NCBI GenBank assembly: GCA_963667175.2
Contig: CAXXXF010000012.1
Span: 160,001-224,000, forward strand
Direction: 5' to 3'
Source: Candidatus Latescibacterota bacterium
GTDB lineage: Bacteria > Latescibacterota > UBA2968 > GCA-2709665
DNA length: 64,000 bases
Shown one piece after another: positions 44,180-48,043 of this stretch; the stretch's first letter is position 1; each line of letters starts with the position of its first letter. The notes beneath the pieces are model-generated. The model was not told the origin of the DNA. It searched no databases and worked only from the letters and a program-made list of their open reading frames with translations. Position numbers and translations under genes: made by a program.

Positions 44180-44914
44180 TTAGCGGAGCGCTTTCAACGA
44201 TACGTACAACCCTCGACCCGGCGTCAATCCATCCTCGTGATACCGGGTGCGGAGACCTGCGTCCGAAAGGATCTCAAGGAACCGCGACCGGTCGAAGAGC
44301 GCCAGTTCGTGGGTGTCGCGGAAGTATCGTACGCCCTTTTTTGTGGATAGGAGAAAATGGAAATCGAGAACGGCCAGGTCTCCGCGGCGCCTGCTCACGC
44401 TGTGCCTGGAGATTCTGACACCCTCTCCTGCCATGGTGCCGCCGTGGATCGACCCGGGCAGAAACGTCTCGGTCGTGAAAAAGGGCTCGACGACAAGGAC
44501 GCCGCCCGGTTTCAGGTGTTTTTCGAAACACGCGATTGACCGTCTAAGATTCCGGTAGGTCCTGACGTAAGCGATCGAACTGAACAGGCAGACGACGGCG
44601 TCGAAGCGGCGCTTCAGGTCGAAGGAGGTCATGTCGCGACAGCGTAGAGGGATTCCGGGATTCTTTCTGCGCGCCACCTTCAACATTTCACGGTTCAAAT
44701 CCAGTCCGGTCACGTCGTAGCGTTCCCGCAGGAACCGGGTGTGTTCTCCGGTCCCGCACGCGACGTCCAGCAGGGAGCGGCCGGATGACGCGCGCCTTGC
44801 CCGGATCAGTTGATGTACTTGCTCCGACTCGGCCCGATAATCCTTCCACTGGTACATCACGTCGTAGAACGGCGCCAGGGCGGCCCACATTTTTTCGGTT
44901 TCTCTGGGCGCCAC
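44180..44914 (-). CDS. Class I SAM-dependent methyltransferase (TylM1/DesVI-like)
   Basis: KDYRAES, LLDVACGTGEH, FDAVVCLFSSIAY, LKPGG. Confidence 0.88.
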   Translation of the reverse strand: MAPRETEKMWAALAPFYDVMYQWKDYRAESEQVHQLIRARRASSGRSLLDVACGTGEHTRFLRERYDVTGLDLNREMLKVARRKNPGIPLRCRDMTSFDLKRRFDAVVCLFSSIAYVRTYRNLRRSIACFEKHLKPGGVLVVEPFFTTETFLPGSIHGGTMAGEGVRISRHSVSRRRGDLAVLDFHFLLSTKKGVRYFRDTHELALFDRSRFLEILSDAGLRTRYHEDGLTPGRGLYVSLKALR

Positions 44915-44942: not shown

Positions 44943-45917
44943 CTAGCGAGCGAAAAAGTGATACGTGGCGCCCACGTGGAGCTGGTAGTCGGACGTCAGC
45001 TGGCTCTCGTTTACGTTCTGATAGACCGGTAGCGGCAGCCGGGCCTCCAGGCTCAGATTCTCCGTTGCCCGTATGCCCAGCTTTGGTGCGAGATACAGCC
45101 AGGCGCCGCCGCGTTTTCGGGCGATCTTTCCATATTGGAAGTAATCGCGCGACGTGTAGACGTGGTTCAGGCTGAGACCCGTGATAAGCATGTCCCCGTG
45201 CATGTAATCCATCGAGAAGATGCCCTGAAACTCGTTTCCGTATTTGTAGCCGTATACATTCTCGCGGGAAATAATGCGGGTGAACAGCATACCGTTGAAG
45301 AACAGGTTGTCGAATGCATGCGACAGACTGACCGAGAAAATCGGGTCCATGCTTCCGGACCCCACCTGCAGCAGGTCGGCGAAGCGCTCGCCGTATTCGT
45401 CGACCGCGTGGGTCGACCCGTTCGCGAGCTTGACGCCGGCGGAAAAGAGCAGGCCCGGCAATGATTCCGGCAGAGGAGGAGCAAAGTTCAACATCAGAAC
45501 GACGTCGCCGAGTCCCGCGGCATGCCGGATATATTTGCCGCCCTCATACTGGTTGTCGTACTGACCGGGAAGGAGGATTTTGTCGTTGGTTATGGAACGA
45601 AACGGGAGAACCACGGCGGCGCCGAACCAATCCTTGACCCCGTAACTGGCGAATACGGACACGGTGGACATGCTGGTCACTTCCTGGTTGATGTTGGGGA
45701 TCGGCCCGGTACCGTACATCGCATCGCCCAGGTACTCATACTCGTAATTCACGCTCAGTACCAGCAGGTCCCTGGTGATCAGACTGCCCTGCAGCATTCT
45801 CCCGCCCGGGAGCACGGGACGGCGTCAACTCACGCCGGGCTGCGCCTGAACGGACCGGCCTGCGAAAATCAGCTGGGCGAACAGAATCAACGGCAGCACC
45901 TGCAACGTACGTTTCAT
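44943..45917 (-). CDS. Exported/outer-membrane beta-barrel-like protein with in-frame TGA at codon 31 (candidate selenoprotein)
   Basis: ATG 45917 overlaps the upstream stop (ATGA); signal peptide MKRTLQVLPLILFAQLIFAGRSVQA-QPGVS-TGA-RRPVLPGG is in frame with ORF 44943-45815; GLGDV, QVGSGSMD, YKYGN, PVYQNVN, aromatic C-terminus. Confidence 0.75.
45797..45824 (-). promoter_or_regulatory. SECIS-like hairpin downstream of the in-frame TGA
   Basis: mRNA UGA CGCCGUCCCGUG CUCCC-GGGC-GGGAG AAUGC; G-led loop starting 18 nt after the UGA. Confidence 0.55.
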
Positions 45918-46429
45918 GTTCCTGACTCCTCCGGGACTGAACGCTTCAGTGACTTATCCAGGATCTTTCGGTATTTCCGAAAAGATCCGTAACCCGAAAA
46001 AACGACCTCTCCCCGGGCGTTGACGATGACAACCGTGGGCGTCAAGCGGGTCTCGAAGGCTTCGAACACCCGACCATCCGAATCGATATAGCTGAGCAGC
46101 GATTCCTTCTTGTCGGCGAAGTAGGTCTGTATTTCCTCCGCGCTGTTCTTCCACGCGATGCCGAAGACCTGCACCCTGTTTCCGTATTTCTTCCTCAGCT
46201 TGTAGACGCGCTTCAACTCCCTCTTGCATGTCTTGCACCAGGTTGCCCACAGATAGACGAAGGACGTCCTGCCTTCGCAGACGTCGGCCAGACTCAGCGT
46301 ATCTCCTTCGAGCGTGACGACCTGCACCAGAGGCAGTGGATCGGGTCTGTCGTCCGCGGCGGCGGTATCAACAAAAAAAACGAACAGACCCGCAGTCAGC
46401 ACGACACCCATGATCCGGAGCAACTGCAT
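45914..46429 (-). CDS. TlpA/redoxin family thiol-disulfide oxidoreductase
   Basis: Signal/TM anchor, LWATWCKTC, TPTVVIVN. Confidence 0.9.
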   Translation of the reverse strand: MQLLRIMGVVLTAGLFVFFVDTAAADDRPDPLPLVQVVTLEGDTLSLADVCEGRTSFVYLWATWCKTCKRELKRVYKLRKKYGNRVQVFGIAWKNSAEEIQTYFADKKESLLSYIDSDGRVFEAFETRLTPTVVIVNARGEVVFSGYGSFRKYRKILDKSLKRSVPEESGT

Positions 46430-46536
46430 TCCACCCACAATCGAACCCTCAGCAAACGGCATCCGATCCCAGATCCCCTGTCTCCAGCCGAACGGCCGAA
46501 GGGTTATCAGCCCGTTGAAAAAGTCCATCCGGTCTG

Positions 46537-46564
46537 CCTGCCTGTGCGTTCGCACGCAGACAGG
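46537..46564. repeat. 28-bp palindromic micro-insertion
   Basis: cctgcctgtgcg-tt-cgcacgcagacagg; absent from MITE copy 1. Confidence 0.8.
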
Positions 46565-46596
46565 CGTCCGGCCCTTGTGGCCGAAATACGGCGTTG

Positions 46597-46615
46597 CCTG
46601 CCTGCAGCAGGCAGG
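46597..46615. repeat. 19-bp palindromic micro-insertion
   Basis: cctgcctgc-a-gcaggcagg; absent from MITE copy 1. Confidence 0.8.
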
Positions 46616-46714: not shown

Positions 46715-47908
46715 TTATCTCCTGGCGACGTGCTTGTACACCACGCGGATGCGATGGTTAAACGTATCGGCAATGTACAGATTCTCGTCCTGATCGAGCG
46801 CGACTCCGAACGGACTCCGGAGTTTGCCCCACCGGGGATGGTCGCTGTCGCCCTTGAAACCCGGCTCTCCGCACCTGCCGGCAAGCGTGCTAATGGTCCC
46901 CTCCGTATCCACCTTGCGGATACAGTGGTTGCCGGTATCGGCAATGTACAGATTTCCCTCCGCGTCGACGACCACGTCGCCGGGGCGGGAAAGGCTGGCC
47001 TGGACCGCCGGGCCGCCGTCTCCTGAATACGTGCCGGCGGTGGGGCCGATGCTGCCGCCGCCGGCCACCGTACTGATCCTGCCCGTGGCGTCCACCATGC
47101 GGATGCGGTTGTTGAACGTATCGGCGATATACAGGTTGCCCCTGCCATCCATCGCAATCCGGCCCGCCGGCTGCGCGGCGTCTCCCGTGGGCGCATAGAG
47201 GTCGGCCAGGACAGCCGGACCGCCGTCCCCGGAAAACCCCTCCCGTCCGGTGCCCGCGACGGTGGAGATCACACCGTCAAGGTCCACCATTCGTATGCGA
47301 AGGTTGCCCTGATCCGAGATATACATGCGACCGGCTGGATCGAAACCCGTGGAACTCGGCAGGTTCAGCGAGGCCTCGAGAGCGGGGCCGCCGTCACCCC
47401 CGAATCCGCGGTCGCCACGTCCGGCAATGGGTTCGACGCGACCGGAGGTCGAGTCGTATCTCAGGATCGTGGCGTTCTGCCAGGCCGACACAATCAGCCG
47501 TCCCTGGAGATCGAAGGAAATATGGGTCGGGTGATCGACGCCCGTCTCCAGCGCGGGGCCCGCGAGCGGATGGCCCGGTTCGCCGTTGCCAATGAGCGGT
47601 CGGACGATTCCGTTGTCGATCACGACAACCCGATTGTTGTTCCAGTCCAGAATGTACGTCCGGTCGTCGGGGCCGACGGCCACGTCCTGGGGGAAATACA
47701 GGTTCGTGTCAAGAGGACCCGATCCCGCGGCGCTTCTGCCCGGGTCTCCGGTGCCGGCGAGGGTGATCATGATCCCGTAGGGCAACCCCGGGTACTCTTC
47801 GTACAAATCGTCGTCCACGGTGGGAGGCGTCTTTCCGCAAGCCGCCACGGCCGCGGAAGCCCCGACCACGAACGCGAGCCGAACCCACACCTGTTTCAGT
47901 AATTTCAT
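46715..47908 (-). CDS. NHL-repeat (teneurin-like) lipoprotein
   Basis: Lipobox VAAC; repeated GFSGDGGPA..L..P....D..GNLYIADT.NHRIR. Confidence 0.9.
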   Translation of the reverse strand: MKLLKQVWVRLAFVVGASAAVAACGKTPPTVDDDLYEEYPGLPYGIMITLAGTGDPGRSAAGSGPLDTNLYFPQDVAVGPDDRTYILDWNNNRVVVIDNGIVRPLIGNGEPGHPLAGPALETGVDHPTHISFDLQGRLIVSAWQNATILRYDSTSGRVEPIAGRGDRGFGGDGGPALEASLNLPSSTGFDPAGRMYISDQGNLRIRMVDLDGVISTVAGTGREGFSGDGGPAVLADLYAPTGDAAQPAGRIAMDGRGNLYIADTFNNRIRMVDATGRISTVAGGGSIGPTAGTYSGDGGPAVQASLSRPGDVVVDAEGNLYIADTGNHCIRKVDTEGTISTLAGRCGEPGFKGDSDHPRWGKLRSPFGVALDQDENLYIADTFNHRIRVVYKHVARR

Positions 47909-48043
47909 CTCTGTAAAAATAGGAACAAGCGAGCCGCGATTCAACCCCGAAATCGGTTCGGTTGCCTGAATCGCGCGCATTGAGCCCTGTACGCCGGTCC
48001 CACCGGCGAACCGCGACCTGAACGCCATAACGGCCGGGGACCG

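Follow-up and report, generated by a model that had tools for sequence, protein, structure and literature searches.

A candidate outer-membrane barrel with a lone selenocysteine near its mature N-terminus in Candidatus Latescibacterota and related phyla

The stretch analysed here (the window) comprises 64,000 nt of contig CAXXXF010000012.1 from a Candidatus Latescibacterota bacterium. On its minus strand, positions 44943–45917 very probably form a single gene, which would encode an exported COG4313-type outer-membrane barrel of 12 strands, with codon 31, a UGA, decoded as selenocysteine (Sec, U). This reading of the full gene (signal peptide, UGA and barrel) draws on the read-through translation and a model of the barrel, and that of the UGA itself (45825–45827, minus strand) on the conservation of the TGA column and the presence of Sec machinery in the genome. 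A hidden selenoprotein of this kind had been proposed in a preliminary description made from the letters of the stretch.

The gene and its in-frame TGA

The open reading frame (ORF) listed for this region under translation table 11 begins at GTG 45815 (290 aa), 34 codons past an upstream ATG. That ATG (45917–45915) overlaps the stop codon of the upstream redoxin gene (TGA 45916–45914) in an ATGA that can be read directly in the sequence, and is preceded by a Shine-Dalgarno-like run, GGAGGAG (45926–45932, minus strand); no run comparable to it was seen ahead of GTG 45815. Codons 1–25 (45843–45917, minus strand) encode a predicted signal peptide, MKRTLQVLPLILFAQLIFAGRSVQA, with a signal peptidase I site, VQA/QPG (the slash marks the cut), predicted from the AxA/Q pattern. 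A single in-frame TGA (45827–45825, codon 31) follows, and then 293 sense codons, ending at the stop codon TAG (44945–44943). With TGA read as U, the product is a precursor of 324 aa, MKRTLQVLPLILFAQLIFAGRSVQA/QPGVS-U-RRPVLPGGRMLQG..., whose mature N-terminus is predicted at Q26, so that Sec would be mature residue 6 if cleavage occurs after A25. The coupled start, the signal peptide, the lone TGA with its open frame and the late start of the listed ORF were all features of the preliminary description and were all found where it had placed them. So was the absence of Cys: the protein has none, and the same is true of 54/54 non-redundant mature sequences. The region behind the TGA (44946–45824, minus strand) encodes the tip motif RRPVLPGG and then the body of the 12-strand barrel, with motifs GSGSxDP, ENxYGYKYGNE, RxRGG and NVNESQL, as delineated by alignments and the structure model. 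Sec standing in for the Cys of a lipobox was considered and rejected by eye, as the residues preceding U are G-V-S, G-I-S or Q-V-S and the AxA/Q site lies five residues upstream.

Homologues with a TGA at this column, the first thing to look for according to the preliminary description, proved to be numerous. When the read-through protein was searched against 41 related genomes, 18 gave a match (36 rows), and exactly one TGA was present in 33 of these rows, the remaining three not reaching residue 31. Each of the 15 genomes in the genus, counting that of the window, carries two paralogues that are about 54% identical and have the TGA at the same column, in the shared context ...AxA/Q[PG]GVS-U-RRPVLPGG[RS][LM].... 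Across a one-genome-per-species collection, the TGA was found at 41/41 genome loci, and it was present at a further 57 metagenome loci. The genome loci represent at least five phyla of the Fibrobacterota–Chlorobiota–Bacteroidota (FCB) group. Close loci (the nearest being 86–93% identical) are labelled Candidatus Latescibacterota, with some metagenome-assembled genomes labelled Gemmatimonadota, while the distant TGA loci are labelled KSB1, Calditrichaceae, Fidelibacterota and Marinimicrobia/Neomarinimicrobiota. The metagenome scan yielded 79 loci, 57 of them with the U motif; the other 22 consist of 16 distant relatives and six loci without a usable N-terminus, which were left out because the N-terminus was off the contig or the alignment began only at residue 125.

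Residues are conserved on either side of the TGA, and the motif at this column can be summarised as AQ-G-G-[VI]-S-U-R-R-P-x-L-P-G-G. At the protein level, S5, U6, R7, P9, L11, P12 and G14 of the tip are invariant in the 54 mature sequences. A signal peptide precedes the TGA at every locus, with equivalent n- and h-regions and an AxA/Q site. Public gene calls for the close homologues, in all cases seen, start just after the TGA and give proteins of 276–289 aa, which therefore lack the signal peptide. As TGA also terminates 5 of the 17 intact genes examined, it is an ordinary stop codon in these organisms, and recoding would be site-specific and not a change of the genetic code.

The TGA was also checked in public sequencing runs, as had been suggested. 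A contig of run X2 (45702–45998) spans the codon with zero differences; X2 may be the source sample, so this contig is not independent and adds little beyond the comparison across species. Runs X1 and X3 gave no contig over the TGA. The runs in which the stretch is present include ones labelled sponge metagenome. An RNA run (X20) was rejected as evidence of expression, since only a small share was present and its sole barrel contig has 12 differences, indicating a relative in the RNA library.

The hairpin after the UGA and the selenocysteine machinery

A hairpin described earlier as a possible bacterial selenocysteine insertion sequence (SECIS) lies at 45799–45812 (minus strand), and was recovered exactly as proposed. 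Its stem is formed by CUCCC (45812–45808) and GGGAG (45803–45799) and its loop is GGGC (45807–45804); the spacer is 12 nt, and the first G of the loop is the 18th nt after the UGA. The same bases encode L-P-G-G and the AG that opens the following Arg codon. The match to the bacterial SECIS model also stands, in that a stem-loop with a G in the apical loop occurs soon after the UGA, and this is now backed by covariation across 75 distinct sequences.

A gap-free alignment of 40 distinct 60-nt stretches places the helix at columns 25–29 with 34–38, and 199 of the 200 cells in this alignment are paired. The third pair (columns 27 and 36) is CG in 29 sequences, UA in eight, UG in two and AU in one, and is never unpaired; it links the third positions of a Leu codon and a Gly codon, both of them synonymous sites. 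Neither the covariation score nor the percentage paired was reached by any of 500 shuffles, and sliding the 3′ arm by 1–3 columns, as a control, lowered pairing to 26–80%. RNAalifold independently chose the same helix. Over the 75 distinct genome and metagenome sequences, the stems are CTCCC/GGGAG (44), CTTCC/GGAAG (19), CTTCC/GGGAG (3), CTACC/GGTAG (2) and CTGCC/GGCAG (2), the other five being singletons with one wobble or mismatch each, so that all four Watson-Crick types (C-G, U-A, A-U and G-C) are found at the covarying pair. Loops are NGGN, or GGUC in the L-P-V-G variants.

Codon choice in the stem is equally constrained. The Leu codon is CTN in 75/75 sequences, compared with 67% elsewhere in the same genes (TTR, 33%), and the codon that closes the stem is AGN in 70/75. 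Where the latter encodes Ser it is AGY in 59/59 cases (38% elsewhere in the same genes), and where it encodes Arg it is AGA in 11/11 (26% elsewhere). The alternation of Arg and Ser at this residue is explained by the need of the stem RNA for the AG that their codons share. In relatives that are free of Sec (EIGPRRMTLPTEN; EIGPRRMTLP[TNS]EN, 26–31% identity), only two or three of the five pairs can form at the homologous place, in 7/7 cases, while the hairpin is kept at the same place in three other TGA-bearing subfamilies, those of loci L164 (GVKUASPNLPVGG), L166 (CPAU) and L168 (UAAU). Selection on the RNA itself thus keeps the hairpin in place.

The preliminary description had made its proposal dependent on Sec machinery elsewhere in the genome, and the full set is present, with tRNA-Sec, SelA, SelB and SelD all above curated cut-offs. 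The tRNA-Sec scores 73.4 bits (anticodon tca, by ARAGORN), SelB 354.9 bits (cut-off 242) and SelA 474.8 bits, and selB, selA and the tRNA-Sec gene are clustered on contig C6. The selD gene (contig C13, 163286–164209, minus strand, locus L091; 360.1 bits) is itself a selenoprotein gene, with one TGA in the context ...ARTCG-U-AAKVSPVG..., and its SECIS has a 10-nt spacer, a 7-bp stem and the loop GGUC. The apex of the barrel hairpin, CC-GGGC-GG, resembles that of selD, CC-GGUC-GG; both lie within the ORF and have G in the first two positions of the loop. They differ in stem length (5 bp in the barrel gene and 6 bp in its paralogue, against 7 bp) and in spacer (12 nt against 10 nt). Of the genome's 22,433 in-frame TGAs that are flanked by open frames, only 10 have an apex that reads CC-NG[GT]N-GG with a 4-nt loop, among them those of both barrel paralogues and selD. 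Decoding of Sec by a hairpin inside the ORF is textbook biology, and the bSECISearch consensus and the features of Escherichia coli fdhF are the usual points of reference; as in fdhF-type elements, the hairpin described here is inside the coding region, and no bulged U is evident in it.

SelA is found in 39/41 of the relatives and in 17/18 of those that hold a barrel gene, the exception being an assembly that is 80% complete. Of five distant holders, three have a tRNA-Sec above cut-off and four have SelA, in one case just as a partial gene where the contig ends. A similar apex (CC-UGGA-GG, with a 6-bp stem and a 13-nt spacer) was observed after TGA 466749 of contig C3 (plus strand), in the context ...NNIGDYVYP-U-PADRKFLEELGISAEKF..., which may mark a further selenoprotein gene.

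The barrel, its relatives and its gene neighbours

A model of the mature protein, built with AlphaFold2 from the 54 non-redundant sequences, has a mean pLDDT of 85.1 and predicts a 12-strand outer-membrane barrel of the COG4313 type. The best structural match is 4RL8, the COG4313 channel Pput2725 of Pseudomonas putida F1 (Z 25.8, rmsd 2.4 Å, 255 residues aligned, model residues 13–296 onto chain residues 1–268), followed by FapF (Z 23.8) and then autotransporter barrels. A Foldseek search with the first model returned FapF (5O65) on top (E 8.5e-11), in agreement with the structural comparison. Like Pput2725, the window protein has a short N-terminal segment before strand 1 and a predicted barrel of 12 strands, with 255 of 268 residues aligned. 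According to PMC4493636, the N-terminal ~14 residues of Pput2725 fold into the lumen and occlude it from the periplasmic side; the word cysteine is absent from that paper. The equivalent of this plug segment starts at about mature residue 13, which would place Sec (residue 6) on a 12-residue extension beyond it. These ~12 extra N-terminal residues with Sec are one difference from the COG4313 channels. Another is that most residues invariant in the window family have charged or polar side chains (E, D, R, K, N, Q), while the substrates linked to COG4313 channels are hydrophobic, and an ion or polar cargo would thus fit better than a hydrophobic one.

The FapF barrel aligns over model residues 18–296, but only residues 99–406 of FapF take part, and its long periplasmic N-terminal region has no counterpart in the window protein, in which ~25 residues precede strand 1. 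An amyloid secretion channel of the FapF type was rejected for this reason and because there are no fap-like genes nearby. Pfam returned no family for the read-through protein at E < 0.01, PF13557 (Phenol_MetA_deg) included, so that it is not a member of PF13557 by hidden Markov model (HMM). Some relatives do match PF13557 (cut-off 22 bits), namely P0013 (~54% identity), with 29.9 bits, and P0085, P0102, P0065 and P0043, with ~23 bits. Judged from these matches, the window protein is a divergent relative of the PF13557/COG4313 channels.

A profile search of 1.84 billion representatives gave 2,175 proteins at E ≤ 0.001, 18 of them at E ≤ 1e-30. The closest matches start at position ~38–39, just after the TGA, and are therefore truncated gene calls. 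Among the more distant homologues, 121 full-length proteins (≥290 aa) are listed, most of which begin their mature part with ...AQ[GTSA]-C-C-S-[GA]-G-[TV]-P-..., and others with C-x-C or C-x4-C. The earlier assertion that related barrels often carry an N-terminal Cys was thus borne out, with CC, CxC and Cx4C, and in addition CxxU and UxxU, at the mature tip of distant homologues. The barrels of loci L166 (CPAU) and L168 (UAAU) align with the window family on a shared U-x-x-P-x-L-P-G, in which the second motif position corresponds to the U of the family. In place of these paired motifs, the window family has G-V-S-U, a single Sec with no partner Cys or Sec, and so appears from the alignments to be a branch in which one selenol is left where others have C/U-x-x-U. 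A separate TGA branch was seen at metagenome locus L164 (2501–3436), which is 30% identical, with the tip G-V-K-U-A-S-P-N-L-P-V-G-G and a perfect 5-bp hairpin at the homologous place. Scanning the neighbourhoods of 8 of the 16 distant-relative loci with Pfam (L158, L159, L164, L165, L167, L168, L169 and L171) revealed nothing conserved, except that an efflux gene of the OEP type adjoins L168, the UxxU locus. Matches to thioredoxin HMMs were present near L167 and L169.

The gene immediately upstream of the barrel in the window, to which it is translationally coupled, encodes a TlpA-like exported thioredoxin with the site WATWCKTC (45914–46429, minus strand; Pfam Redoxin, 1.1e-13; AhpC-TSA, 5.5e-12). 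TlpA reduces the copper-site cysteines of ScoI and CoxB. The thioredoxin of the window shares with TlpA-type periplasmic thiol:disulfide reductases an exported thioredoxin fold and a WCxxC site, but does not qualify as an equivalog of TlpA, ResA or DsbE, as all NCBIfam matches are below their cut-offs (38.1 against 230 bits for TlpA). Its listed ORF extends to GTG 46555. A short dispersed repeat (46480–46600, core ~46508–46600) between the thioredoxin gene and the NHL-like gene further upstream lies in the 5′ end of this ORF, so the true start is probably ATG 46429 (MQLLRIMGVV...). A BLAST search with the 121-nt repeat stretch gave 171 matches, on all 18 contigs of the genome, some being ~93–95 nt long at 96–98% identity, and the depth of the public-run contig rises over the repeat from ~6 to ~740.

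Across phyla, 35 of the 84 loci with enough flanking sequence (from 95 distinct loci) have a gene of the thioredoxin fold immediately upstream of the barrel and on its strand. These thioredoxins, with the site [YF][LF]-W-A-T-W-C-x-x-C, group tightly as orthologues. No gene accompanies the Sec barrel more constantly than that for a ~350-aa beta-propeller lipoprotein, directly downstream in 67/85 loci. This protein has a lipobox Cys followed by SLY.D..P.IY[FY], a C-terminal FEPYN..SFDLQRI and weak Pfam matches to SGL/Lactonase, and was seen at L054, L057, L059, L068–L083, most metagenome loci and, in the window's own genome, at L035 (2423–3688). It is missing from 18 loci, which make up the group to which the window's own copy belongs, ‘paralogue A’; they have the thioredoxin instead, and an NHL-like lipoprotein further upstream. 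The second barrel copy in the window's genome (contig C5) shows the reverse arrangement, with the propeller and not the thioredoxin.

The NHL-repeat-like beta-propeller lipoprotein gene upstream of the thioredoxin (46715–48028, minus strand, an ORF) may be part of the module. It was not accepted as an orthologue of the downstream propeller lipoproteins, to which it shows 17–24% identity and a poor alignment. On the other side of the barrel gene, 29 nt downstream, is a gene for an S-adenosylmethionine (SAM)-dependent methyltransferase (44180–44914, minus strand; Pfam Methyltransf_25, 1.8e-17; a weak TehB-like match, E 0.0024), which adjoins the barrel only within the genus; L028, for example, has another neighbour. 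Proteins with FG-GAP and ASPIC-UnbV domains, mostly with a type-9 secretion C-terminal sorting domain, are frequent further neighbours in several phyla. Examples with FG-GAP and ASPIC/UnbV beside the thioredoxin-barrel-propeller cassette occur at L057 (325–2154), L068 (657–2420), L077 (649–2598) and L078 (5033–6643).

Role of the tip, competing explanations and significance

If the UGA is decoded as proposed, SelB would bind the hairpin and bring Sec-tRNA to the codon, as in bacterial selenoprotein genes of the fdhF type. Signal peptidase I would then cut at AxA/Q to give a mature Q-P-G-V-S-U-R-R-P-V-L-P-G-G, with Sec near the tip, and this tail would be positioned in the mouth of the barrel on the periplasmic side, or at it, and in sequence directly ahead of the segment that blocks the lumen in the solved COG4313 channel. 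There, the lone selenolate could bind a thiophilic cargo or signal as a ligand or serve as a redox handle for it, a soft metal being the first guess, and would be kept reduced in trans, here by the coupled WATWCxxC thioredoxin. It would replace the CC, CxC, Cx4C, CxxU or UxxU motif found at the tip of distant homologues. With the UGA at codon 31, a failure of Sec insertion would waste just a 30-residue peptide, and synthesis of the channel would be tied to the selenium supply.

The role suggested by this analysis, a selenolate ligand or redox handle for thiophilic cargo that is reduced in trans by the coupled thioredoxin, is put forward tentatively, as a redox- or metal-gated channel was in the preliminary description. 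It is favoured because homologous tips carry dithiol-type motifs, an exported CxxC reductase co-occurs and the barrel interior is polar. Three observations count against it: a single selenolate is unable to form an intramolecular redox pair, the thioredoxin gene is adjacent in only 35 of the 84 loci, and no metal-handling or metal-resistance gene was found beside the barrel family in the neighbourhoods examined.

The explanation that competes best with this role accepts Sec and gives it neither a metal nor a redox function. The residue would instead provide mainly a selenium-dependent translational checkpoint on channel synthesis, or would make a covalent bond, either as a diselenide in a dimer or as a selenenylsulfide with some other protein of the envelope, by which the barrel is anchored or gated. 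The very early UGA, which makes abortive termination cheap, speaks for this explanation, as does the existence of Ser forms. As the mature protein has no Cys, any bond must form in trans, and the propeller lipoprotein gene is the most constant neighbour (67/85 loci); the sole invariant Cys of that lipoprotein, however, is its lipidation Cys. The invariant tip around Sec in the 54 sequences suggests a working site over a mere checkpoint, and this explanation is considered unlikely.

Much less probable is read-through of the UGA without selenium, whereby the hairpin would aid near-cognate decoding (as Trp, Cys or Arg), or simple leakiness would yield the barrel. The base after the UGA is C or A in all rows of the 40-sequence alignment, and these are contexts that are leaky in bacteria; the hairpin is small, and the Ser variants suggest that residues other than Sec may serve at this position. 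Against this stand the presence of all the Sec genes and of SelA in 17 of the 18 relatives with a barrel gene, the agreement of the hairpin apex with the SECIS of the genome's own selD, and the correspondence of the position to Cys/Sec motifs in related subfamilies. The hairpin is, moreover, gone exactly where the TGA is absent, and a leaky stop codon maintained over five or more phyla has no obvious advantage over a sense codon.

It is more improbable still that the UGA is a true stop, with a 30-codon leader ORF that regulates a separate barrel gene starting at GTG 45815 or ATG 45797. Start codons do exist downstream, and the public gene calls of close homologues (276–289 aa) begin there, but the product would lack the signal peptide that a barrel of the outer membrane requires. 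In all 127 loci with the motif, the reading frame continues through the TGA, and S-U-R-R-P-x-L-P-G is conserved right across the junction, while the nearest possible start codon varies between loci. The same layout is found within one continuous protein in the full-length Ser forms and in the distant Cys forms, and the Shine-Dalgarno-like run precedes ATG 45917 and not GTG 45815. A sequencing or assembly error, or a pseudogene, for which nothing speaks except the stop codon itself, is refuted by the same-column TGA in relatives, that is, in independent assemblies of many species and phyla at genome and metagenome loci, by the run contig that crosses it without a difference and by the intact, conserved remainder of the gene.

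A Sec-containing barrel, with selenium predicted from the UGA, the hairpin and the machinery, is favoured with high confidence, but several points weigh against it. The stem is short (5 bp), Rfam gave no match to 45650–45950 at E ≤ 10, a single-sequence fold of the 75-nt region is no better than shuffles (z = 0.02) and does not pick the hairpin cleanly, and a comparable hairpin is present 9–15 nt downstream of 638 of the 22,433 in-frame TGAs (2.8%). As the single sequence is unremarkable, the significance of the hairpin comes from the comparative data only. No close homologue among those compared has Cys exactly at the Sec column, and two full-length metagenome proteins have Ser there, P0012 (SSRRPALLGG) and P0020 (GSRHPVLPGG). 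Ser in place of Sec is unusual, and argues that the Sec residue is probably not indispensable for folding. (P0012 also has L-L-G-G and not L-P-G-G, which would weaken the hairpin.) Both Cys and Sec are missing from the tip in a subfamily of 28–30% identity. The model gives the tip a pLDDT of only 57–61, so that its position relative to the lumen is tentative. Finally, neither tRNA-Sec nor SelA was found in a 1.6-Mb Marinimicrobia assembly that carries the barrel gene, and one fragmented holder assembly has a tRNA-Sec below cut-off and only a fragment of SelA.

Outer-membrane selenoproteins have been catalogued before: PMC13188914 lists the GSU2204/MtrB-PioB barrel (NF041027) and a TonB-dependent receptor with an FCYXU motif (NF049945), while in PMC9312934 the term ‘outer membrane’ occurs for the MtrB/PioB entry only. 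Both are outer-membrane beta-barrels with a predicted Sec, like the window barrel, but they belong to families unrelated to it. NCBIfam release 20 has no model at E ≤ 1 for the window protein, its paralogue or a Marinimicrobia member, and neither PF13557 nor COG4313 is listed in these two selenoprotein reviews (2022, 2026; PMC9312934, PMC13188914). A search of the selenoprotein and selenoproteome literature for COG4313, Phenol_MetA_deg and the host phyla, with subscription journals and supplements outside its scope, found no paper on a lone-Sec barrel family. The window protein and its relatives are, on this basis, a putative new selenoprotein family, whose unusual feature is a lone Sec without a thiol partner.

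In most selenoproteins, Sec is paired with a nearby Cys, or orthologues exist in a Cys form. Here, Sec would be the sole chalcogen side chain of a protein in which Cys is absent (54/54 mature sequences), and which resides in an oxidising envelope, making the question of how a lone selenolate functions directly testable. The family has been invisible, both as an exported protein and as a selenoprotein, as gene callers routinely cut it short after the UGA; affected members include those of Marinimicrobia/SAR406-type marine lineages and of bacteria in runs labelled sponge metagenome. The hairpin offers a natural experiment on SECIS evolution within coding sequence, in which covariation between a pair of synonymous third codon positions takes in every Watson-Crick combination.

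A wider proposal, and a doubtful one, is that the Sec-tipped tail is the working part of a new class of envelope device, in which a plugged barrel would capture thiophilic cargo (a soft metal, or a sulfur or selenium species), pass it across the outer membrane or gate that membrane, and have its tip reset by the WATWCxxC thioredoxin. A bolder version would make the barrel the outer-membrane step that has been missing from the uptake of selenium or sulfane; according to PMC13188914, prokaryotes have no known transporter that is specific for selenium and of high affinity. If the wider proposal is true, the CC, CxC, Cx4C, CxxU, UxxU and lone-U superfamily (2,175 representative clusters at E ≤ 0.001) would constitute one functional class, with the lone Sec as its extreme.

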